Positions 36,470 to 58,768 of a DNA stretch of 64,000 nucleotides are shown here, piece after piece. The DNA comes from Candidatus Krumholzibacteriia bacterium (GTDB lineage: Bacteria > Krumholzibacteriota > Krumholzibacteriia > JAJRXK01): the NCBI GenBank assembly GCA_041484665.1, contig JBGPIA010000002.1, forward strand, positions 640,001-704,000, given 5' to 3'. Numbering within the stretch: the stretch's first letter is position 1; every line of letters starts with the position of its first letter. Position numbers and translations under genes: made by a program. The notes under the pieces are model-generated. The model was not told the DNA's origin, ran no database searches, and worked only from the letters and a program-made list of their open reading frames with translations.

Positions 36470-38503
36470 CTACTTCGATTCTGCGGGCCTGACCGTGACG
36501 GCGATCTTCTCCGCCCCGTCCAGCACCCACTGCGTCGTCAGCTGCGTGCCCGCCACGGGGGTGGCGAGGACGCTCTCGGCGGTGGGGGTGCCGCGCGCGC
36601 GACCGAGCACCGCCTGCACGCTGGGCGGCAGCTGCTCCAGCTCGCGCCCGCGCACCACGACCGCTTGCGGGGCCCCGTAGAGCGTCGCCACCAGCGTGCT
36701 GGCCGGACGGCGCAGCGCGAAAGCCTCCCGCACCGCGCGGACCCCGGGATTGCGCCAGCGGGCCATGGCGCGCGCGAGCTCCTCGCGGAATGCGCTGCTG
36801 CCGTCGGCCAGGTGCAGCTCGTAGAGACCGGGCTGCGTGCGCGGCGGCACGGTGATCTCCAGATCGGTCCACACCGGCGCGGCGTGTCGCGGCAGCAGCT
36901 CGACGCGCACCGCCACCCGCTGTCCGGGGCGCGGATCGGGCGGCTGCGCCAACACGCGCCCGAGCCGCGCTGTCTGTTCGCCGAAGCCCAGCTCCAGTTG
37001 CGCCTGCACGGCCTGCAGGCGCACCGCCTGCTCATCGTTGAACGCCACCATCGAGATCGGCAGGATGACCTCCGACGCGAGATCGGCGCCCTGACCCAGT
37101 CCGCTGAAGGCCGACTCGCTGACCACGGGCGGCTCGCCGGGCACGTCGAGGCGCAGCTGCATGCGCACGGTGGACTCGCCCAGGTTCTCGTGGCCGCTCA
37201 GCAGCGCGCTCTGGATCGTCCAGAGCACGAGCGTGGTCATGATGGCCGGCTCGCGCGCCACACCGTAGGAGAAGTGGTCCTCCCGGCCACCCTGCTCCAC
37301 AACTCGCACGTGCACCGGCAGCAGGTCGGCGGTCACGCCGATCCGGCCGCAGACGCCCGTGGAGCGATCCAGCAGCAACGCGCCGACGGTGGGACCGGCG
37401 GTGGCGAACTTGAAGCTGATCTCGCTGCTGGGCAAGAGCGCCACGACGCTGGCGCCGGCCAGCGGCAGGCTGAGCGGTCCCGCGCCCAGCAATGGGTGGC
37501 CGAAGCCCAGCACCGTGTCGCCGATGCGCTCGGTCATGGTTCCCACGGCGCCCAGGCGGGCGTCCCCGTCGACCAGCAGCACCGCCATCGCGTCACCGGG
37601 ATGCTGCAGGGCGCCCGCCGCGGACGCGCTGGCGGCGGGCCCCGCCCCACCGACATCCGCCGCGCTGCTCACCACCACACTGCGGTCAAGACCCGCCGCG
37701 CGGTCCGCACCCGCAGTGGCGCCCACGGCCGCGGGAAGCGTGGCGTCGAGCGCCTGCGCGATCGTGCTGCGCACCGCGGGCGCGAATCCGGAGACGGTCC
37801 AGGCGAGCCCACTGCTCGCCAACCGACGCGCCAGCCCCTGCGCCGGATCGTGCGGCGGTTCGACGGGCGCACCGCCCAGAGCCGGCAGCGACGGCAGCGA
37901 CGAAAGATCGAACACCTGTGGATGAGGCCACAGCGGCGGATGCGACCAAGCGGAGGCCAGCGCGCCGTCGGCCGCCGCGAGCGCGGCGGCACCGGCCCCG
38001 GCCGTCCCGCCGGCCATCGTGACGTCGCCCAGCGCGAGGCCCGCCGGCGCGCCAAAGGAGGGCGCCAGCGCTTGCTGATCACCCGGCTTCCAGGTCGGGT
38101 GCTCGCCACGCTCCAACGCATCGGCCATGCGGCGCATGTCGGCAATGGGACGGATCGCGGCGATGGGCTCCTTGGCGAAGCCCCAGGTCGCCATCACTGC
38201 CCCGATCAGCTCGCCGTCGATCAGCACGGGGCTGCCGCTCATGCCCTCCAGCACGCCGGTCTGGGTGAGCGGGTCGCCGGAGAGGCGGGCCAACAGCACG
38301 TCGCCGGTCGTGCCCCAGCGCTCGAGGCGGCCGAGGATCTCGACCTGGAAGGTGTCCACCTTCTGGCCCGAGAAAACCGTGTAGCCCACGCCGCGGTCGC
38401 CGGCCTGCGGCGGCCGCGCCGCGGCCAGCGGGGTGCGAACGCTCAGCACGCCGGGCGCGCAGAACGCGCAGAGCGTCAGCAGGTGGGTCCTCAGCCGGCG
38501 CAC
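36470..38503 (-). CDS. SpoIVB-like peptidase S55 domain protein
   Basis: GYTVFSG..V..F.VEILG, GVLEGMSGSPV.IDG.LIGAV, GT.T...G..VLGFGHP. Confidence 0.88.
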   Translation of the reverse strand: MRRLRTHLLTLCAFCAPGVLSVRTPLAAARPPQAGDRGVGYTVFSGQKVDTFQVEILGRLERWGTTGDVLLARLSGDPLTQTGVLEGMSGSPVLIDGELIGAVMATWGFAKEPIAAIRPIADMRRMADALERGEHPTWKPGDQQALAPSFGAPAGLALGDVTMAGGTAGAGAAALAAADGALASAWSHPPLWPHPQVFDLSSLPSLPALGGAPVEPPHDPAQGLARRLASSGLAWTVSGFAPAVRSTIAQALDATLPAAVGATAGADRAAGLDRSVVVSSAADVGGAGPAASASAAGALQHPGDAMAVLLVDGDARLGAVGTMTERIGDTVLGFGHPLLGAGPLSLPLAGASVVALLPSSEISFKFATAGPTVGALLLDRSTGVCGRIGVTADLLPVHVRVVEQGGREDHFSYGVAREPAIMTTLVLWTIQSALLSGHENLGESTVRMQLRLDVPGEPPVVSESAFSGLGQGADLASEVILPISMVAFNDEQAVRLQAVQAQLELGFGEQTARLGRVLAQPPDPRPGQRVAVRVELLPRHAAPVWTDLEITVPPRTQPGLYELHLADGSSAFREELARAMARWRNPGVRAVREAFALRRPASTLVATLYGAPQAVVVRGRELEQLPPSVQAVLGRARGTPTAESVLATPVAGTQLTTQWVLDGAEKIAVTVRPAESK

Positions 38504-45918: not shown

Positions 45919-47229
45919 CTAATCCCGGTAGTGCGCCGGCGGGGTGACCAACAGCTCGATGCGCGGGCGCAGCGCCGGGTCGCTGGCGTTGGTCCCGAAC
46001 AGTCCTGCCCACCCCAGCTCCAGCAGCTCGCTATTGAGCGCCAGGAGCAGGCCGTCGTCGGGCTGCAATACTCCGTTGACCTTGCGCTGGACGAATTCGG
46101 TGACGTTGACCCGCACCCGGACCGCCGCGCGCAGGTCCACCGACGAGGCGCTGTTGAGCACGGCCTCCAGGGTCGTCGCATCCGCTACCCCGGCGTTGGC
46201 CAACGTCGAGCGGTACGCAGCCATGGCCGCATTGGCCGTGCCGACGGTGCGGCTGCGGTCGATCGGCAGCACCAACAACGCGCGATTGATGGTGGACGTT
46301 GGATCGATGGCGCTCAGATCGAAACGCAGCCAGACACGCGCCGGCAGGTGCGACCCCAGCGCGAGGCCCGGATCAACCGGCGGGTCGGCCGGCCGCACGA
46401 AGTGGGTGAGGTCGTCGATCGCCGGGTACGCGCGGAAGGTCAGGTTGGGATCGCCGAGCTCGATGACGATCTCCGGAGCAACGACCTCCAGCGCCTGCTC
46501 GGGGAGCAGCAGGGAGAAGTGGGTGAGCTGCTTGCTGGCCAACCCCACGATGTTGGTGTCGGGCGTGTCGGTGCGGTCCACCAGCGCCAGTCCCATGTGC
46601 CCCCGCGCCTGGATCCAGCTGGCCACCCGGGTTGAGTCGAGCGGGATCCGGAAGTCGGCGGATCCCGGCAGGTCCCGCGCAATCGCCAGCGAGTCGCCCA
46701 GTACGGCCGCGAGCGTGCTGTCGGCCAGCCCGGCGTTGAGCGTGTCGCGCAGCGCGTAGAGGGCGACCGTGCGCGCGCCGCGCCCGAGATCGCTCGCCAG
46801 GATCTTCAGCTCCAGGCTTACCCGCAGCCAGCGGTACGCGAAGACATGGACGGTGTCCGGGACGGCCGCGAAGTTGAAGCGCACAAGCGGCGTCGCTCTC
46901 CAGCCTGCCGAGCGCTGGGTCCCTAGGTAGAGCACCTCGCGGTCGATCAACAGCTGGCTGGCGGCCGGGATCACCTTCATCTCCTGCACGGTGCCGACCA
47001 CGCTGTCCGGCACGGCGAGGTGGTCCTGCTGCACGTCGATCGGCAGCCCCGACCCTGCGGTGTTGAACGGATTGCTGTTGCAGGCACAAAGCAGCAGAGC
47101 GGGCAGAAGCAGCGCCAAGAGCGGCGGCGCGGGCAAGCGCAGCGCCGAACACGGCAGCGCCGGCCGCGGTGCCCGCCGCAGCAGCGGCCGGGGCTGGGGT
47201 CGCGCCCCAGAGCGTCCGCGCCGGATCAC
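45919..47229 (-). CDS. Putative outer-membrane lipoprotein (DUF4270-like)
   Basis: Lipobox LLCAC; beta-rich body with WLRFDL...INRALL; the family call is tentative. Confidence 0.55.
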   Translation of the reverse strand: MIRRGRSGARPQPRPLLRRAPRPALPCSALRLPAPPLLALLLPALLLCACNSNPFNTAGSGLPIDVQQDHLAVPDSVVGTVQEMKVIPAASQLLIDREVLYLGTQRSAGWRATPLVRFNFAAVPDTVHVFAYRWLRVSLELKILASDLGRGARTVALYALRDTLNAGLADSTLAAVLGDSLAIARDLPGSADFRIPLDSTRVASWIQARGHMGLALVDRTDTPDTNIVGLASKQLTHFSLLLPEQALEVVAPEIVIELGDPNLTFRAYPAIDDLTHFVRPADPPVDPGLALGSHLPARVWLRFDLSAIDPTSTINRALLVLPIDRSRTVGTANAAMAAYRSTLANAGVADATTLEAVLNSASSVDLRAAVRVRVNVTEFVQRKVNGVLQPDDGLLLALNSELLELGWAGLFGTNASDPALRPRIELLVTPPAHYRD

Positions 47230-47672
47230 CGGCCCGCTCTCCCGGGCAGCGGCGCGAGCTCGGTGCCGACGCTCACGCCCGCGAACCCGGCCTCGCGCAC
47301 CAGATCCAGCAGGTGCACGACGTCGCCGTGGCGCGCGCCGGACTCCGCCTTGATCAGGATGCGCTGCCCGGACGCCCGGCCCGCGATCTGCGCAAGGCGG
47401 GCGGGGAGCGCCGACTGTTCGGTCGCCTTGCCGTCCAGCATCACCGCGCCGTCGGCCAGCAGCACGAGCTCCGACTGTTGCTGCGACTCGCCGGCCCCCG
47501 CCGCGACGGCAGTGGTGGACTTGGGCAGGTCGAGCTTGAGCTCGCCGTGGCGCCGAAACGTGGTGGTGAGAACGAAGAACAGCACCAGCACGAACAGCAC
47601 GTCCACCAGCGAGATCACGTTCAACATCGTGATTCGCCTGCGCCGCGTGTAGGTTCTAAACACCATCTGCAT
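47226..47672 (-). CDS. exbD: ExbD/TolR biopolymer transporter
   Basis: NVISLVDVLFVLVLFFVLTTTF, LDLP, IKAE....HG.VV.LLD.VR.AG. Confidence 0.92.
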   Translation of the reverse strand: MQMVFRTYTRRRRITMLNVISLVDVLFVLVLFFVLTTTFRRHGELKLDLPKSTTAVAAGAGESQQQSELVLLADGAVMLDGKATEQSALPARLAQIAGRASGQRILIKAESGARHGDVVHLLDLVREAGFAGVSVGTELAPLPGRAGR

Positions 47673-48292
47673 CAGGAGAGCACCTCGGCGCGGCGCTGGC
47701 GCAAGCGCGACACCAGACGGCTGGCGTAGGACTCGATCTCGACGACGTAGGTCTCGGCGCGCGCCGCGATGAGGTTGTAGGCCACCAGCGTGGGAATTCC
47801 GATCGCCAGGCCGGTCGCAGTGCAGATCATGGCCTCGCTGATGCCCGTGGAGAGCATGGCGGGATCCCCGAGCGCGCCCGAGGAGATGGCGCGGAAGACC
47901 TTCATCATCCCGGTGACCGTCCCCAACAGCCCCAGCAACGGCGCGACACCCGCGATCGTCTCGAGGAACACCAGATTGCGCTCCAGCCGCGGGATCTCCT
48001 GGCGTCCCGCGTCGAGCACCGCGTCACGCATGACCTCCCACGGCTCCCCCGCATGCTCGAGCCCGGCGCGCACCACCGCGCTGAAGGCGCCGCGGCTGCG
48101 CCCGCACAGGGTGATCGCCACGCTCAAGTCGCGCCCCGGCTCGACCGCCTCGGTGATATCGACGATCTCGCGGGGGAGGATGCGACTGCGGCGCAGCGCG
48201 AGCACGCGCTCGAACGTGATCGTCGCCGCCAGGAGGCTGCACAGCCCCAGCGGGATCATGACGGGGCCGCCCTTGGCCAGGAAACTCCACAT
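47672..48292 (-). CDS. exbB: ExbB/TolQ/MotA proton channel
   Basis: GGPVMIPL, APLLGLLGTVTGM, GISEAMICTATGL.IGIP. Confidence 0.92.
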   Translation of the reverse strand: MWSFLAKGGPVMIPLGLCSLLAATITFERVLALRRSRILPREIVDITEAVEPGRDLSVAITLCGRSRGAFSAVVRAGLEHAGEPWEVMRDAVLDAGRQEIPRLERNLVFLETIAGVAPLLGLLGTVTGMMKVFRAISSGALGDPAMLSTGISEAMICTATGLAIGIPTLVAYNLIAARAETYVVEIESYASRLVSRLRQRRAEVLS

Positions 48293-48430
48293 CGCTCTCT
48301 CGTCCTGCGGTCCCGTGGGGGCCCCGGAGCGGGCCACCCAGGGGGGGACCACCTTAGGGGGTTGGCGGCGGACCTGGCAAGTGGCGCGTCCGGTCGGTGG
48401 TCTGGGTGCTGCCGGTGGTGCCCGCGCGCA

Positions 48431-49582
48431 TCAATGCTCGTGGTCGGGGTAGATCATCTTCAGGCGAAGGACGAGCGAGGGCTCTGGAAAGTCCTCTGGC
48501 AATGCCTGGTAGGGTGCTGTCGACCGCAAGGCGGCAATGCTGTGCTCACGCAGCGAGCTGTGTCCCTCCTCGCCGAGGACTTCCAGGCGGACCAGCTTCC
48601 CGTCGCGCGCGACTTCCAGCTCCACGAGGGTGTAGCCATGGATCACGCCGAGGTAGTACGCGTACGGAGCCCGCCAGTTCCGTTGGACCTCCCGGAAGAA
48701 GTGCTGCAACCACGGCGCATAGGCCCACTTGATGGTGCTGAGGCTGACGTCTCCGAAGAGCTGGACGTTGCCCCCGGGGTTGTCCATCTCCTCCTGGTAG
48801 ATGTCGGTCGTGCCAAGCCGCTGGAGCAGCACCGGCGTCGCCGGCCCACCCTCGCCGCGTCCCAGCAGGTCTTCGCGGGAATCCGCGGTGGACGCCCGGC
48901 GCCGCCGCGCGTCGTCAGCGGCGGCCGCGCTACCGGCGTCCTGGGCGGTGGCGTTCTGCGCGGTTGCGTCCAACGCGGAGCCATCCTGCGGCGGACCACC
49001 CGGGCCGGGGCCCGCGGCGGGCGGGCGCGCTGGCCGGCCGCCTGGGGATGCTTGCGCGCCGGCGGCGGACGCCTGCGCGCCGGCCGGCGGCAGCACTGGC
49101 TGGGGCTGGCCGGCGGGCTCCATGCCGACGTGGGGTGCCTCGCCCCGTCCCTTCAGCTCGGGCAGGCCCGTGTCTTCGCCTCCGGGACGCCGGTCGCGCG
49201 CCCGGCTGTCGACGTTGCTCAGGAAGTCGGGGCGCTCCGGGCGCACGTCGGTGCGGTCCACGGGCAGCTCGCTGAATTCGCTGGGCTGCTTGGGCTCCGG
49301 CGGTGTCGGCGCGGGCCGCTCGCCGCTCACGGCAGCCTGGGATGCGGCCGATGCGCTCACCGCCTGGTCGAAGACGAACGAGACAGGCTCGGGAGCGGAG
49401 GCCTGCAACGTGGCCGGCCCACCCAGCCCCACCCAGCGGGCCCCCAGGCCGCACACGATGTGGAACAGCAGCGCCAGGATCAGCGCCGCCAGCCAACGCC
49501 CCCGCTCGGAAGCCGCCGACTCGCAGGACGCAAACGCTTGCTCGCGGGAGGCGGGCCCGAAGGTTGCTGGCTGAGTTGACAT
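48431..49582 (-). CDS. TonB/TolA-family energy transducer
   Basis: TM helix ALILALLFH, Pro-rich linker, C-terminal WL..F.REVQRNW.AP...RDGKL..LEV...ALR..APY..LP. Confidence 0.8.
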   Translation of the reverse strand: MSTQPATFGPASREQAFASCESAASERGRWLAALILALLFHIVCGLGARWVGLGGPATLQASAPEPVSFVFDQAVSASAASQAAVSGERPAPTPPEPKQPSEFSELPVDRTDVRPERPDFLSNVDSRARDRRPGGEDTGLPELKGRGEAPHVGMEPAGQPQPVLPPAGAQASAAGAQASPGGRPARPPAAGPGPGGPPQDGSALDATAQNATAQDAGSAAAADDARRRRASTADSREDLLGRGEGGPATPVLLQRLGTTDIYQEEMDNPGGNVQLFGDVSLSTIKWAYAPWLQHFFREVQRNWRAPYAYYLGVIHGYTLVELEVARDGKLVRLEVLGEEGHSSLREHSIAALRSTAPYQALPEDFPEPSLVLRLKMIYPDHEH

Positions 49583-49629: not shown

Positions 49630-50604
49630 ATGCAGCAGGCCTCCACGCCGATCAGCAATCTAGCCGCAGATCCGCGGTACGACGAGCTCGACGCGCGGTT
49701 TCCGGGGCGCCTGCGCCGCGGCGTCCCACTCGCCGAGCGCACCAGCTTCCGCATCGGCGGAGCCGCCGCCATCCTGGCCGAGGTGCAGTCCGCGAGCCTG
49801 ATGGCGGAGCTGCTCGCCGCCGCGCGCGAGCTCGCACTGCCGTGCTTCTTGCTGGGGGGCGGCAGCAACCTCCTGATCGACGAGAGCGGAATCCACGGCC
49901 TGGTCCTTGTCAATCAGATGCGAAGCCAGCGCTACGATGGTGACCTGCTGCGGATCGACGGCGGTGTGGGCTTCAACGACACCATCCTCGACGTGGTGGA
50001 GCATGGACTGGGCGGGCTGGAGTTCGCCGCCGGCATCCCCGGCACGCTAGGTGGAGCGGTCTGGGGCAACGCGGGCTGCTACGGGCAGGCGATCGGCGAT
50101 TTCCTGGTGGAGGCGCGCTGGATCGACCGCCGGGGGAAGATCGAGACCGTGGGCCCCGACGCCTTCGCCTTCGTGTATCGCGACAGCAAGCTCAAACGCA
50201 ACGGCGCGGTGCTGCTGGACATGGTGCTCCAGCTGCTGCCAGGCGACCGCGCGCGCAGCGAGTCGATCATCGCTGAGAACATGGGCCTGCGTTGGCAGAA
50301 ACATCCCCACCTGGAGCCCTGCGCCGGGAGCTACTTCAAGAACGTCCCGCCGCCCGATCCATCCCAGCGCCGCATCCCGGCCGGCCGGCTGCTGGAGGAG
50401 GTCGGCGCCAAGTCGCTGTCGGTTGGCGGAGCGGCGATCTTCCCCAAGCACGCCAACATCATCATCAACCGCGGCGGGGCCACGGCGAGCGACGTACGCG
50501 CCCTCGCGGCCGAGATGAAGCGCAGGGTGGGCCTGCAGTTTGGCATCGAGCTCGAGGAGGAGGTCACCTACATCCCGCCCGACCTCAAGGGCTGCTCCGT
50601 ATGA
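49630..50604 (+). CDS. murB: UDP-N-acetylenolpyruvoylglucosamine reductase
   Basis: TSFRIGG, GGGSNLL, GLEFAAGIPGTLGGA..GNAG, YRDS, AGSYFKN, HANII, LEEEV. Confidence 0.96.
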   Translation: MQQASTPISNLAADPRYDELDARFPGRLRRGVPLAERTSFRIGGAAAILAEVQSASLMAELLAAARELALPCFLLGGGSNLLIDESGIHGLVLVNQMRSQRYDGDLLRIDGGVGFNDTILDVVEHGLGGLEFAAGIPGTLGGAVWGNAGCYGQAIGDFLVEARWIDRRGKIETVGPDAFAFVYRDSKLKRNGAVLLDMVLQLLPGDRARSESIIAENMGLRWQKHPHLEPCAGSYFKNVPPPDPSQRRIPAGRLLEEVGAKSLSVGGAAIFPKHANIIINRGGATASDVRALAAEMKRRVGLQFGIELEEEVTYIPPDLKGCSV

Positions 50605-53290
50605 GCGGCACACTCGCGCGGCGCCCGCCAGCTTCGACATCCACGTAATAGCTCCCCCTCCCCACCGACGCCCCCCGCCCGTCGCGCCCCGACCAGACGG
50701 CCGCGAACCAGCCCGATCCCTCTGGCGTCGCCTGCACGCGCGCCACCACCCGACCGCGCGCGTCGCACACGCGTACACGCGGCGGCCGGTCACCCGCGGC
50801 GCGGAAGCGCAACGTCACCGGGCCGAAGCTGGGATTGGGCGAGGGAGTCAGCAGCACGATCGATCCCGCAGCACTTGCCGCCGCAGCAGCGGATGCCTCG
50901 ACTGCGGCCTGCGCCAGAACGTCGCCCGTCGCAGCCACGAGCGCGTAGCGCTCCGGCCCGCTGGCCGGGGCGGGATCGCGGCCCGTCCAGCTGCGCTCGC
51001 CCGGCGCCGCGGAGCCATCCGCCGCGGCAGGCTGCGCCACGAGCGCGATCGGCCGGCCGTCCCGCACGCGGCGTGCCACGACTTCCACCGAGGCGCTGGC
51101 GGTCAGCTCGACCGCCGTGCCCGTGCGCCGCGCGCTGAGCGCGCCGCGGGCGACCGGCACCGCCTGCTGCGGCTGGTTGAACAACGTGACGATCGCGTCG
51201 CCCAGCGCGTCGAGCACGACGACGTCGCCGCGTCCGTCACCGTCCAGGTCGGCCCCCACCTGGTCGAGCGGCAGCGACGAACAGCGATACGTCACCGGCA
51301 CGACGAAGCTGCCGTCGCCGGCGTTGATGTGCAGCGAGATCTCGCGGAAGGCCGGCGAGGAGACCACCAGGTCGTCTTGGCCGTTGCCGTCCACGTCGAG
51401 CGCGGTGATCCGCCCCGCCCCTACGGGGACCTTCACGTTGCGCGATCCGATGTGGTAGAAACGCGGAAAGGAGCTGAGGATGACCGTGAACGTGCCGTCA
51501 CCGGAGTTGGCGCAGGCGATGTCGGGCAGGCCGTCGCTGTTGAAGTTTCCGCAGGCGATCGTCCGCGGCTCGTCGCCGGCGTCGAAGCGCGTTGGAGCCT
51601 GCAGCCCCGTCGAGTCGCTGAAGGCGACGTAGAGGGAGCGGTACCCATCGAGGGCCAGCACGTCGTCACGCCCGTCGAGGTCCAGGTCGCGCAGTTCGGT
51701 GACCTCCGGCGAGCCCTGCAGCGGGACGGAGTCGGTGGGGATGAAGCCACCGCTGCCGTCACCGCGCAGGACCTGCAGCGCCCCCAGATCGCTGTCCGCC
51801 AGCACGAGGTCGCCCCGACCGTCGCCGTCGAGATCGCCCGCCGCGACGTCGCGCACACCGGCCGACAGCGGCAGCACCACGGGCGGGGAGAAGCCTCCTC
51901 CCTGGCTGAAGCGCAGCTCCACCAGTCGTCCGGGGACGATCACCAAGAGGTCGGGCCGCCCGTCGGCGTCGAGGGACACCCAGCGCAGCTTCGCCGCACC
52001 CGCCGTGACCGACAGCTGCCCCATCTGACGCCAGCGCAGACCGTGCAGCTCGTACAGCCGCACCTCCCTGGATCCGGCGCACAGGACAGCCAGACGGCGC
52101 GCCGCCCCCGCAGCCGGCAGGCTGAGATCGAGACTGATGGGGAGCTGGCCGGTCGCGGCGGAAGGGTAGGCCAGGAAGCCGCTCCCGAAGCTGCGCAGAA
52201 CCACCAGGGCGTTCTCGCTCGACAACGGCGCGACGATCTCGTCGCTGCCATCGCCATCCAGGTCGACCGGCAGGAGCTGGCCGAGCCCCTCGCCGAGGAA
52301 GTACGAGTCCTGCAACTGAGCGGATCCCGTGGCCCCGATGCGGTAGAGGCTCAGGCGGTCCAGCGGGGCCTCGCTGACCACGACGCGCCGCATCGGGCCG
52401 GCATCGGGCAGGCGCGCGAGCCCCGTGGAGGAGGGCGCAACCGGCCACGAGAGCACCGGTTGGAAGCGGCCGTCCGCGGTTCCCTGCATCACCACCACCG
52501 CGCCCTGGATGCCGTCCAGGGCGAGCAGGTCGGGATATGCGTCAGCGTCCCAAGCGCCGAGCAGCAGGCCGCGAGCGTCCCTCACCGGCAGTGACTGGGA
52601 GAGTCCGAAGCTCGCTCCCTGGTAGACGCCGATGTCGTCGGAGAGTGCTCCCGGCTGGGCGATGACGACCTGGGGCGTGGTCGCGCCGGGCCACCACGCC
52701 GCGCGTACGCTCGCGGGCTGGTCGCCTGCGGGATAGGTCTGCGCGGGCTGCAGGATTCCGCCGGCGTTGCGATAGACCGAGAGCAGGTCGGCCCCCTGGT
52801 TGGCCACCAGGACGTCGAGCCAGCCGTCCTGCCCGAGGTCCACCAACGCGAGCGACACTGCCTCGTCGCCGCCGGGCAGCGACTGCACGGCGCCAAACGG
52901 CAGCGCGCCGGTCGTCCCGAAGGCCCAGGACAAAGCCCCGCTGCGCCGGTCGACCCAGACCAGGTCGGTCCGTTCGTCATGGTTGAGGTCGGCGACGGCA
53001 ATCTCGACTGGCTCCCCCCCCACCACGAACACTCGGGGTGGGAGGAGCTCCCCATTGCCGCTCCCCTGCAACATCAGGATCGCGCCATTGGCGCTGCCAG
53101 TGGCGAGCACGTCGAGGACGCCATCGTCCGTGAGATCTGCTGCCGCGATCGAGGTCGGCTGGCCGGGGCAGGAGAACAGGGAGGGCCCGGGGAAGAACTG
53201 CGCGCAGGCCGGGCAGGGCGCCGAGACCTCCGCCAGCCAAACCGCGAGTACGGCCGCCGTGCGAGGCGCCCACGCGCGTCGGGCGGTCAT
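50585..53290 (-). CDS. Secreted FG-GAP/VCBS repeat protein with FlgD/T9SS-like C-terminal domain
   Basis: Many DLDGDGxxD repeats; C-terminal PSPNPS.GPVTLRF...DARGRVV...WSGRD.RG..V..G.YYV. Confidence 0.85.
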   Translation of the reverse strand: MTARRAWAPRTAAVLAVWLAEVSAPCPACAQFFPGPSLFSCPGQPTSIAAADLTDDGVLDVLATGSANGAILMLQGSGNGELLPPRVFVVGGEPVEIAVADLNHDERTDLVWVDRRSGALSWAFGTTGALPFGAVQSLPGGDEAVSLALVDLGQDGWLDVLVANQGADLLSVYRNAGGILQPAQTYPAGDQPASVRAAWWPGATTPQVVIAQPGALSDDIGVYQGASFGLSQSLPVRDARGLLLGAWDADAYPDLLALDGIQGAVVVMQGTADGRFQPVLSWPVAPSSTGLARLPDAGPMRRVVVSEAPLDRLSLYRIGATGSAQLQDSYFLGEGLGQLLPVDLDGDGSDEIVAPLSSENALVVLRSFGSGFLAYPSAATGQLPISLDLSLPAAGAARRLAVLCAGSREVRLYELHGLRWRQMGQLSVTAGAAKLRWVSLDADGRPDLLVIVPGRLVELRFSQGGGFSPPVVLPLSAGVRDVAAGDLDGDGRGDLVLADSDLGALQVLRGDGSGGFIPTDSVPLQGSPEVTELRDLDLDGRDDVLALDGYRSLYVAFSDSTGLQAPTRFDAGDEPRTIACGNFNSDGLPDIACANSGDGTFTVILSSFPRFYHIGSRNVKVPVGAGRITALDVDGNGQDDLVVSSPAFREISLHINAGDGSFVVPVTYRCSSLPLDQVGADLDGDGRGDVVVLDALGDAIVTLFNQPQQAVPVARGALSARRTGTAVELTASASVEVVARRVRDGRPIALVAQPAAADGSAAPGERSWTGRDPAPASGPERYALVAATGDVLAQAAVEASAAAAASAAGSIVLLTPSPNPSFGPVTLRFRAAGDRPPRVRVCDARGRVVARVQATPEGSGWFAAVWSGRDGRGASVGRGSYYVDVEAGGRRASVPLIRSSP

Positions 53291-53387: not shown

Positions 53388-53417
53388 TTGACAAATGCCG
53401 CCCCAATCAAGTATTTA
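53388..53417 (+). promoter_or_regulatory. Sigma70-type promoter for the outer-membrane barrel gene
   Basis: TTGACA-18 bp-TATTTA. Confidence 0.55.
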
Positions 53418-53460
53418 TCCCTGGTTTCCCACCCCACGGGACCCGCTGAAGGAGTCCGCC

Positions 53461-54372
53461 GTGCGACGCGCCGCCTTGCTGTCCGGAATGCTGCTGCTTC
53501 TGGGGAGCGCGGGAGCCTGGGCCCAGACGCCCAGGGAGCCCCAGATGCCCAAGCAACCCGACCAGCCCGAGGAGACCCAGCCCGGCCGGGAGCGCAACGA
53601 GGTCGTCACCGAGAAGCTGTTCGTCCCGGGACTCAAGCGCAACGCGTGGCAACTGGACGTGCAGCTGGGCACGCTTGGCCTTGCCAAGACTTTCCTGAAG
53701 GCCGATCGGATCCTCGTCGACTACGAGTCCGACGCGGGCAGCGCCCTGTATGGGAACATGTCCCTGCAGGGACAGAGCTCGTTTAGCCCGCAGGTCAAGC
53801 TCGGACACACGATCAAGTCGTTCAGCCTCGAGGAGGGCGTCGGGTTCGCCATCGGGGACTTCAAGCAGCAGGTCGATCGCGGCAGCATCGTCTCGCCCGC
53901 CCCGACCAACACCAACACGCTGACCGACAACGAGGTCAAGACGGGCTCGTATTTCATGTGGTTCCACGAGACGTCGGTGTCGTGGTACCCCATCGTACGC
54001 GGGCGCTTGCTGCCGTACGTGTCGGGCGGCGTCGGCGGACAGTACTACTTCCTCGACAGCTCCAACTACGTGCACGGCACGACCTCGAGCCTGGCGTTCA
54101 GCACCGGCGTGGGCCTGCGGCTCGTCGGCGACAACGTTCTCTCGGCGCGGCTCGAAGTGCGCAACTACTGGTACTCGGTGGACTTCACACCGTCCCAGAA
54201 CTTCCTGAAAGACGTGCCGAATCCTGACCGTGGGGCTCCCGTCGGGGAACGGCTGTTGAACATCCCGCTCACGGCGTTGGACGCCGACGGCACGGCGCAG
54301 CAGGTGACGAAGTACGACAAGCAGTCTTTCAGCAACCTGTGGATGTCGGTCGGGTTCGTGGCGGCGTTCTAG
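53461..54372 (+). CDS. Outer-membrane beta-barrel protein
   Basis: AAGGAG RBS plus GTG; signal peptide ending AWA; LLPYVSGGVGG, STGVGLRL, ARLEVRNY; C-terminal SVGFVAAF. Confidence 0.8.
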   Translation: MRRAALLSGMLLLLGSAGAWAQTPREPQMPKQPDQPEETQPGRERNEVVTEKLFVPGLKRNAWQLDVQLGTLGLAKTFLKADRILVDYESDAGSALYGNMSLQGQSSFSPQVKLGHTIKSFSLEEGVGFAIGDFKQQVDRGSIVSPAPTNTNTLTDNEVKTGSYFMWFHETSVSWYPIVRGRLLPYVSGGVGGQYYFLDSSNYVHGTTSSLAFSTGVGLRLVGDNVLSARLEVRNYWYSVDFTPSQNFLKDVPNPDRGAPVGERLLNIPLTALDADGTAQQVTKYDKQSFSNLWMSVGFVAAF

Positions 54373-57328: not shown

Positions 57329-57997
57329 CTACGGGTGGTAGCTGTCCTTCAATGTCCCCCAGCTGCGCTGCTCGGTCGGCACGCCTTCGGTGCAGACCAT
57401 CTTCGCGTTGAACGTGCGCGTGAACGGCGCGCTCGGCATCGGATTGAACACCGGGCTGCCGCCGTGGATCACGCTCGCCAGGAACGAGCAGTCCAGCGGG
57501 GCGGTGGCCAGGATGTCAGCGTAGCGGGTCCCGCCGACGTACAGGTAGCTGCCCACGCCGTTGCCGTAGGCCAGGCCGAAGACGTCCGTCTGCAGCGAGG
57601 CCGTGAACCCCGAGAGCGACCCGGTCAGGATCGCCGTCCCGTCGGAGAACGTTCCCAGACTGGCGTAGCTGGCCGGCGTGGAGGCATCCTCGTAGATCGC
57701 CCAGCTGCCGGTCGCGTACGTGTCGTTCAGCTGCGTCGCCAAGGTGCCGGTCTTGCCCGTCTGGATCAGCGCTGCCACGAGCGTGTACTGCTTCGTCGCG
57801 AAATCCAGGGGGATCGGCGTTGGAGTGCCCGGCGTCGGCGGGTTGGCGATCCCGTAGACGTACAGGGTGCTCCCGATGGCGTCGTCGGTGGGCACCGCGT
57901 AGCTGAATCCCTCGAAGGTGAACGCCCCATTCGCGGCCGCACCGCTTGCGAACGCAGCGACGAACGCGAAGGTGAGGATCGCTGTCGCCATCTTCAT
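57329..57997 (-). CDS. Secreted protein with C-terminal SWGxxKxxY tail
   Basis: Sec signal ending AAA; Thr/Gly/Ser-rich beta body; ends GVPTEQRSWGTLKDSYHP. Confidence 0.85.
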   Translation of the reverse strand: MKMATAILTFAFVAAFASGAAANGAFTFEGFSYAVPTDDAIGSTLYVYGIANPPTPGTPTPIPLDFATKQYTLVAALIQTGKTGTLATQLNDTYATGSWAIYEDASTPASYASLGTFSDGTAILTGSLSGFTASLQTDVFGLAYGNGVGSYLYVGGTRYADILATAPLDCSFLASVIHGGSPVFNPMPSAPFTRTFNAKMVCTEGVPTEQRSWGTLKDSYHP

Positions 57998-58063
57998 GTT
58001 GTCTGATCCCCTTTCCGCTTGATCAAGCCGACCTCGGCGCGCCGCTGTCGGCGCCGCCGCGTT

Positions 58064-58768
58064 CTAGTTCTTGTAGAGGGCCTTGAGCTTGCCCCACGAG
58101 TTCTGCTCGGCAGGCACGCCCGAGTCCACGAAGATCTGGCCGTCGAGCTCCAGGTTGTAACCCTGGGGAATGAGCGGGTCGAGCTGGGGCCCCACGATGC
58201 CTTCGAACAGGAAGCTGTTGCCCGTGGGCGGCAGGGGACCGTTCTGATCGGCCGTGAAGACGATCACGCCCTGGGCACTGCCGGTGAAGCGCACCGTGTT
58301 GTACCGCAGGTTGAACTGGGTGAAGTGCCCGATCAAGTAAACCGAGCCATCGGTGAACGTGCCGGGAGCCGAAGCATTCGGCGGGTTGATCCCGTAGTCG
58401 CCCACGGTGTAGCTCCCGCCGCCCACCTGGTCCGTGTGGATCTCGACGTTCCCCCCCGCGTAGGACACGAGGATCTCATCGAGATTGGCCGGATTCACGA
58501 TCTGGCCGCCCGACACGAGATTGGAGAAGTAGTAGGTGTACTCGTACGGTCCGAGCGGAGGCGTGAGCGCCTGGCTCGCGCCATCGACGAAGCCGACCGC
58601 GAACATCTGGTCGCCAGGATCGCTGGGCGGAAAGACGTTGGGGCCGCCCCCGCCGACCGAGCTCTCCCACACGTTGCCGATGATGTCGAACACGACATAC
58701 TGGGCGGAGGCCGGACCGACCAGCATTGCCAGGAGAAGCGCTGTCGTCGTTAGCAAGGAAATTCGCAT
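58064..58768 (-). CDS. Secreted protein with C-terminal SWGxxKxxY tail (paralog of the downstream gene)
   Basis: GAGG RBS, ATG 58768; Sec signal ending ASA; ends GVPAEQNSWGKLKALYKN. Confidence 0.85.
   Translation of the reverse strand: MRISLLTTTALLLAMLVGPASAQYVVFDIIGNVWESSVGGGGPNVFPPSDPGDQMFAVGFVDGASQALTPPLGPYEYTYYFSNLVSGGQIVNPANLDEILVSYAGGNVEIHTDQVGGGSYTVGDYGINPPNASAPGTFTDGSVYLIGHFTQFNLRYNTVRFTGSAQGVIVFTADQNGPLPPTGNSFLFEGIVGPQLDPLIPQGYNLELDGQIFVDSGVPAEQNSWGKLKALYKN

Follow-up and report, generated by a model that had tools for sequence, protein, structure and literature searches.

Two adjacent genes of the window (the whole stretch of 64,000 nucleotides that was analysed) encode secreted proteins whose bodies match only patchily but whose last residues align closely. 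This raises the question whether the shared tail is a protein-sorting signal, as the original prediction had proposed, and to which secretion system such a signal would belong. The features of the two genes are:

58064..58768, minus strand: tail gene 1, ATG start, 234 aa, with signal peptide, predicted soluble beta-barrel body and C-terminal tail
58703..58768, minus strand: predicted Sec signal peptide of tail gene 1, 22 aa, A-S-A end (crude hydrophobicity test)
58067..58120, minus strand: tail of gene 1, GVPAEQNSWGKLKALYKN; predicted helix from the W to the end, unpacked against the body
57329..57997, minus strand: tail gene 2, ATG start, 222 aa, distant paralog of gene 1
57932..57997, minus strand: predicted Sec signal peptide of tail gene 2, 22 aa, A-A-A end (crude test)
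57332..57385, minus strand: tail of gene 2, GVPTEQRSWGTLKDSYHP

Both proteins end in the consensus V-P-x4-[ST]-W-G-x-[VL]-K-x-x-[YF]. Their bodies share 21% identity (36 of 170 aligned positions) as against 11 identical residues in the final 18. The signal peptides and Gly/Thr/Ser-rich bodies described earlier for these co-oriented neighbours are confirmed, since both proteins pass the crude signal-peptide test and the three residues make up 27% and 33% of their lengths compared with 20% of the proteome; every peptide quoted in that description is present. The absence of a transmembrane anchor is borne out as well, as neither protein has a hydrophobic C-terminal segment. An AlphaFold2 model of gene 1 (9-row alignment, mean pLDDT 74.9) consists of a beta body and a loose C-terminal helix at residues 202-210, which have a low pLDDT of 45-56. 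In fold the body comes closest to a DUF3224/dirigent-like soluble barrel (2q03_B), at a middling Z of 8.9 with an rmsd of 3.3 over 115 aligned residues, a match that implies no function. A Pfam and NCBIfam scan of gene 1 gave no match, and gene 2 matched the floc PEP-CTERM protein PepA weakly (E 0.026, far under the cut-off). The S55 protease and the barrels of the window, which had been suggested as candidate partners, are not adjacent to the tail genes; they include an S55 (SpoIVB) peptidase slightly over the Pfam cut-off at 36470-38503 (minus strand) and an outer-membrane barrel-like gene with a weak TIGR04565 match at 53395-54372 (plus strand).

The genome holding the window is 5.45 Mb long and 93.65% complete, and our own gene caller found 3,989 genes in it. 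Its phylum is probably Krumholzibacteriota, judging by the taxa of Atlas clusters, by the C25 peptidase tree and by a RecA comparison with five named genomes that was itself only weakly informative. An iterated score matrix located the tail in the last 22 residues of 63 of these genes, with no internal matches at a score of at least 20. A profile search recovered several further tail genes missed by the caller, bringing the total to about 70. Translated in six frames, the genome gives 65,679 segments that contain the pattern [ST]WG.[LIVM]K 45 times, and 40 of these copies lie no more than 12 residues from a stop. Among the called genes, 36 have the pattern in their final 22 residues, whereas 50 shuffles gave 0.08 such genes on average and 1 at most. 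By the crude test, signal peptides are present in 52 of the 63 tail genes as against 1,281 of the 3,926 other genes (33%), and in 110 of 121 tail homologs. Among the 63 tails, Tyr or Phe is conserved in all, Lys and Gly in 62 each and Trp in 46.

The proteins carrying the tail are diverse. Cargo regions of at least 30 residues number 61 and form 40 clusters, and the 40 of the 63 tail proteins that were scanned contain at least 10 different Pfam domains, the Pfam-type domains found being CHRD, DUF4114, lamin-tail, GSDH, PPC, Calx-beta, beta-helix, CBM20, LamG and phosphoesterase. The tail itself is not covered by any Pfam or NCBIfam model in the two window proteins and 40 other tail proteins. 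Cargo is generally small in this genome (median 227 aa, maximum 476, against a median of 731 for proteins with a type IX C-terminal domain, CTD); a strict size limit is ruled out by one tail-bearing protein of 1,183 aa. The two window genes are distantly paralogous, and homology inside a single family might have accounted for their common end, as might chance, but the 40 unrelated clusters, the variety of domains and the excess over shuffled sequences refute this explanation. The tie to the C-terminus and to signal peptides on unrelated cargo was correctly predicted, and a check of three contrary outcomes (a tail restricted to paralogs, a tail independent of the C-terminus or of signal peptides, a tail within a known domain) found none of them. 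The tail is real, genome-wide and not a product of paralog homology, and it is undescribed in the literature searched: the main texts of openly available papers gave no description of it, and literal motif strings retrieved no relevant paper. PMC3909097 notes CTD proteins in Poribacteria in passages that do not mention the tail motif.

CHRD, DUF4114 and lamin-tail domains are familiar from PEP-CTERM proteins. Their presence on tail cargo, the weak PepA matches and a Val-Pro at positions -7/-6 in 41 of the 63 tails (Val at -7 in 46, Val or Ile at -7 in 53, Pro at -6 in 53) would suit a PEP-CTERM-like signal that lacks a membrane helix and undergoes exosortase-type processing, a link that the original prediction had drawn from the Val-Pro. 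In its parts dealing with tripartite signals (PEP-CTERM/exosortase, LPXTG, GlyGly-CTERM and MYXO-CTERM), 10.1101/2023.06.07.544157 describes several traits shared with the tail: a C-terminal position, many copies, signature residues, signal peptides and a candidate enzyme gene beside the substrates. The tail differs from them in having no transmembrane helix and no Arg cluster, and in that no exosortase was found. The combination of signature motif, transmembrane helix and basic cluster that defines this class is not seen in the tail genes, as a membrane segment (hydrophobic 19-residue window in the last 45 residues) is present in 0 of 63. Exosortase (PF09721) gave no match in the 93.65%-complete genome, while a control genome was positive. 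The Pro of the Val-Pro is specific to the lineage of this genome, only the Val being general across lineages, and a VPEP end occurs in 0 of 121 homologs, a set biased towards the tail. The link to PEP-CTERM is thus largely refuted, and we regard it as very improbable.

A connection to type IX secretion (the T9SS) is much closer. The genome encodes SprA, eight PorV-family genes over the cut-off and five C25 peptidases, one of which is PorU over the cut-off and lies beside PorV; 205 genes carry a FlgD-Ig-type CTD. Twenty tail cargos have tail-less homologs in the same genome, and 17 of 24 such homologs end in a CTD. In the closest tail/CTD paralog pair both signals start at the same alignment column, and none of the called genes carries both (63 tail and 205 CTD genes). 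A CTD gene lies within two genes of 27 of the 63 tail genes, compared with 559 of 3,721 other genes. In the window itself, two genes for cargo of T9SS type A (FlgD-Ig) lie not far from the tail genes, at 50585-53290 (minus strand, FG-GAP repeat protein) and at 61676-64405 (minus strand, lamin-tail protein extending past the window end).

The tail shares with the type A CTD (TIGR04183, PF18962; in this genome FlgD_ig, PF13860) the pairing of a Sec signal peptide with a C-terminal tag, its use on many unrelated cargos per genome, the same cargo domains and the presence of SprA, PorV and PorU in the genome. The junction is also the same, with a Val/Ile start; the portion of PMC11969387 on Prevotella intermedia gives a cleavage consensus of PT/GI. 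In contrast to the 40-100-residue beta-sheet domain of the CTD, the tail is a predicted helix of about 15 residues that has none of the motifs B, D and E; it may be repeated or stand ahead of a CTD, and it occurs in lineages where no GldM was found. None of the three CTD models matched the two window proteins or 40 other tail proteins, and a CTD profile built from this genome matched 0 of the 63 tail genes. T9SS signals can shrink, as shown by P. intermedia's short CTDs (40-55 aa), which are still cleaved and glycosylated according to the relevant passages of PMC11969387. In the same passages, however, these still have motifs B, D and E along with three beta-strands and are modelled as sitting on the PorV site, and even the shortest known CTDs keep the beta-strand motifs bound by PorV, with which the tail has no structure in common. 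A precedent for a second class of T9SS signal with a genetically linked partner is provided by type B CTDs and their dedicated PorP/SprF shuttles, as presented in part of PMC12618676; these are folded domains, whereas the candidate partners of the tail are a PorU paralog and a lipoprotein pair. The tail works like a C-terminal sorting tag and yet belongs neither to the T9SS CTDs nor to the tripartite signals, because it has no beta domain and no membrane helix.

The tail is found well beyond one genome. Its profile matches all 151 phylum genomes, with 4 to at least 54 matches per genome. In a library of 1.84 billion proteins it is terminal in 125 of 129 motif-bearing representatives, a set that excludes the first-ranked P0001-P0004, which are repeat artefacts without the motif. 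A pattern scan of GTDB DNA gave at least 120 stretches, and among the 80 listed almost all have FCB-group titles or no lineage name; for the tail position counts, 9 short, open or doubtful frames were removed from these 80 loci. PMC11285876, in the part concerned, lists other FCB phyla as possible T9SS carriers. Of 35 motif copies read from a Poribacteria genome and two Latescibacterota genomes, 32 are terminal, and these two Latescibacterota genomes contain 23 and 28 TW[GA]x[IVLM]K matches compared with 4 and 2 in controls. The profile trained on the source genome detects the tail in only 26 of 50 tail-bearing genomes outside the phylum sample, and therefore under-reads other lineages. These 50 genomes, picked for a tail match, include 49 with SprA and 50 with a C25 peptidase; the lone exception for SprA is an assembly of 1.6 Mb in which just one tail gene is known. 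Among the genomes examined, none that was rich in tails was seen to lack SprA.

In Poribacteria the tail and the CTD are joined on the same chain: 21 of 41 genomes, as against 0 in the control, have WGx[IVL]K five residues before QNYPNP (the first CTD strand), on the unrelated cargos WD40, GSDH and FG-GAP. The opposite order is seen in an uncalled gene of the source genome (G000:C29:20010-20588, minus strand), which encodes a small secreted protein with a FlgD-Ig-like domain followed by a tail variant. The CTD swaps on paralogs, the Poribacteria fusion, the occurrence of SprA in 49 of 50 genomes and an adjoining PorU paralog do not support the claim that the signal is distinct from the known systems. 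What stands of the prediction is a genome-wide, C-terminal tag, linked to signal peptides and borne by unrelated cargo, without a family model; its separateness does not, since it is tied to the T9SS.

The adjoining PorU paralog is the first candidate partner. It is a C25 peptidase of 1,450 aa with its own CTD, present in two copies in the source genome, one of which sits behind four tail genes. With a PF01364 domain and a His-Cys dyad it is a C25 cysteine peptidase, scoring 176 and 174 bits against PorU (NF033707, cut-off 420) and thus falling short of that family. It resembles the putative PorU2/PorV2 pair of NCBIfam (NF052324, NF052325) in being a second PorU-like C25 peptidase, but its copies reach only 90 and 100 bits against PorU2 (cut-off 450) and form a clade of their own. 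In a quick tree this clade has an SH-aLRT of 99 and is separate from the second C25 genes of Bacteroidota and of KSB1/Calditrichota; His and Cys are kept in all 26 rows. Matches to the paralog occur in 147 of 151 phylum genomes, the weakest of which may be other C25 genes. In 20 loci drawn from all nine families of the phylum, co-oriented tail genes lie directly upstream in 19 (18 by score, one with diverged tails), which are not 19 independent events since synteny is common to kin; the same arrangement is seen in two of four loci from outside the phylum sample. The cargos upstream belong to several sequence clusters. The end of contig C23 and the start of C5 of the source genome are overlapping halves of one tail-gene array, so that the PorU-paralog locus has been split by the assembly.

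The PorU paralog cannot be a universal reader of the tail, because two Latescibacterota genomes with more than 20 tail-pattern matches have a single C25 gene each, with the catalytic Cys replaced by Ser. The same replacement is seen in the PorU of three Latescibacterota-type genomes (L240, L243 and L244), which is possibly inactive or a Ser-type sortase. Around the PorU-paralog locus (L060, L211-L230) a MltG-like gene lies upstream and MurQ, AnmK, SpoIID and NagZ-like genes downstream, these names being given by eye. A conserved, secreted Ig-like protein is encoded directly upstream of the tail array at this locus and has neither tail nor CTD (L281, L213:3673-4290, L218:4576-5256); it is dockerin-like by a weak PF00404 match (E 0.008-0.03). 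One tail cargo has a weak cohesin match.

The second set of candidates is a mini-protein, a lipoprotein pair and a barrel, for none of which a Pfam or NCBIfam model was found. The mini-protein (140 aa) has a signal peptide, a fibronectin-III-like domain and a highly conserved tail, and its family accounts for 38 of the 80 listed GTDB pattern loci; in 10 of the 38 the Ignavibacteria mini-protein has as its neighbour the SpoIID-like gene that is also seen at the PorU-paralog locus. In an evenly drawn sample of 111 Bacteroidota genomes, PorU is present in 79, GldM over the cut-off in 27, a M6-like protein in 48, the lipoprotein pair in 42 and the single-copy mini-protein in at least 41 (among the matches listed, counting rows that reach the tail). 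Among the matches listed, all 41 mini-protein genomes have PorU and the lipoprotein pair, the mini-protein is present in 41 of the 42 genomes with the pair, and it is found in none of the 27 GldM-positive genomes. This contrast tracks class boundaries and therefore amounts to about one evolutionary event. Again among the matches listed, 17 of the 58 PorU-positive, GldM-negative genomes lack the mini-protein; the lipoprotein pair is present in one of these 17, and a tail-pattern search in five of them gave one match.

In the source genome a 703-aa barrel-like gene is followed by two homologous lipoproteins, A and B (C9:87315-90738), and this operon is found in 20 of 30 phylum loci. At its C-terminus lipoprotein A carries a tail variant with R in place of K, seen by eye in 20 of 20 phylum loci and lying under the score threshold; in 24 of 24 loci from 22 Bacteroidota and two Latescibacterota it ends in [ST][WF][SG]. 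The lipoprotein family was found in five of five further genomes, the match in Poribacteria being only weak (E 8.8e-6), and a metagenome scan for a tail-bearing lipoprotein gave one weak locus, which was set aside. No barrel was seen beside the pair in the fetched Bacteroidota and Latescibacterota loci (1.5-4 kb flanks); in two Latescibacterota a PorV-family gene is upstream of the pair instead. The pattern of its sequence lets the pair be read as NTF2-like, while its profile gave no significant match in the PDB (best E 0.07; NTF2-like entry E 0.55). The pair may be the reader of the tail, or its members may just be further conserved proteins with a tail, docking on a shared hub.

The original prediction had placed W, L and Y at i, i+3 and i+7 of an amphipathic helix. 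The spacing is confirmed and AlphaFold2 models a helix, but the amphipathic character failed a moment test: the hydrophobic moment is 0.26 compared with 0.31 in shuffled controls, and we rejected a membrane helix of the amphipathic kind. Lys at i+4, which is nearly invariant, shares the helix face with W, L and Y. Since it does so, and since the moment is no higher than in shuffled sequences, we infer a face for protein docking rather than for membrane binding. The cleavage motif of Porphyromonas gingivalis is T/E/D/N | G/A/S in the section of PMC10202324 concerned; a motif of this type ([TEDN][GAS][VI]) occurs before the tail in 7 of 63 genes compared with 67 of 1,062 background windows, which is no clear enrichment. 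Tail copies are also found internally, in tandem, between repeated domains or just after the signal peptide (P0043, P0036, P0099, P0012, P0013, P0028 and P0006), as well as on lipoproteins, and such copies and carriers fit a docking module better than a cleaved terminal signal.

Taken together, we favour a reading in which the tail is a second, predicted-helical address label of the form of T9SS where no GldM is found, and we put its probability at roughly 0.55. The export, binding, cleavage and location named here are our proposals. Cargo would leave the cytoplasm through Sec and lose its signal peptide; the free helix would then dock on a partner in the envelope by way of its W/(V,L)/K/(Y,F) face. 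This partner would most probably be the NTF2-like lipoprotein pair or else the site bound by the tail variant of lipoprotein A itself, and the cargo would be handed to the SprA-PorV translocon. In this phylum and in Eisenbacteria only, the His-Cys-intact PorU paralog behind the tail arrays would cleave the cargo close to the conserved Val and fix it to the surface. Several observations count against an address label: the internal and tandem copies, the tails on lipoproteins, Latescibacterota without a Cys-active PorU, the cleavage motif without clear enrichment, the 17 of 58 genomes without the mini-protein (among the matches listed), a GldM contrast that runs by class, the gene with a FlgD-like domain followed by the tail, the dockerin-like protein with neither tail nor CTD, and the lack of likeness to PorV-bound motifs.

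Some of these would be accommodated if the tail were no export signal at all, and instead an uncleaved docking helix tethering proteins to an envelope scaffold, be it the lipoprotein pair, an outer-membrane protein or the tail proteins one another. Proteins with the tail only would then be periplasmic or carried out, and those with tail and CTD exported by the CTD. Tandem, internal and N-terminal copies, tails on lipoproteins, the tail and CTD on one chain in Poribacteria, the Latescibacterota without a Cys-active PorU, the peptidoglycan-turnover genes flanking the PorU-paralog locus and the SpoIID-like neighbour of the mini-protein all agree with such a helix. We nevertheless consider it rather unlikely, as the motif is terminal in 125 of 129 representatives, tail and CTD are mutually exclusive in the source genome and swapped at one junction, and the tail-adjacent peptidase has a CTD of its own. 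An export route independent of SprA, through the 703-aa outer-membrane barrel and the two lipoproteins encoded behind it, would draw on the operon in 20 of 30 loci, on a barrel without a family model, on the tail variant of lipoprotein A and on the occurrence of the lipoprotein pair, which follows that of the tail more closely than the occurrence of PorU or of the M6-like protein does. The barrel was, however, not seen beside the pair in the Bacteroidota and Latescibacterota loci fetched and no tail-rich SprA-negative genome was found, which makes this route improbable.

Beyond the favoured address label, it is possible, though less likely than not, that the tail represents a new class of secretion and sorting signal, a 15-residue helix with its own recognition module in a motor-less T9SS that is widespread in the FCB group. 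The module would comprise the NTF2-like lipoprotein pair and the tail-bearing fibronectin-type mini-protein, with a dedicated transpeptidase and a barrel added in some phyla, and would be replaced by the GldKLMN motor in Bacteroidia. The gingipain-like paralog could recognise the nearly invariant Lys or mediate its cross-linking.

To our knowledge, every T9SS signal described so far is a folded beta domain, and the short sorting tags described have a membrane helix. If the address-label reading is true, a soluble tag of 15 residues on 1-2% of the genes of this genome would add a class of signal, would supply a predicted destination for many hypothetical proteins and would be a very small secretion tag. 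The tail is present across the phylum and in several sister phyla, and it bears on how the T9SS works where no GldM is found. Lineages with the titles Ignavibacteria, Kapabacteria and Rhodothermaceae, which include cultured strains, have the single-copy tail protein and the lipoprotein pair, so that the idea could be tested at the bench.

GldM/PorM was found in none of five genomes including the 93.65%-complete source genome, while the same model was positive in 27 of 111 Bacteroidota. In the window, ExbD, ExbB/MotA and TonB-like genes lie at 47226-49582 (minus strand), and ExbBD-like genes were also seen by eye near PorV-family genes on contigs C3 and C17; they might energise a T9SS that has no GldM. 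As an obligatory reader of the tail we rejected the M6-like inactive metalloprotease (NF052323), it being present in only 29 of the 41 mini-protein genomes (E 1e-40, among the matches listed). It never occurs together with GldM in the 111 Bacteroidota genomes, and two such inactivated genes (L047 and L056) each adjoin a PorV-family gene; the M6-like protein is possibly a stand-in for PorZ.
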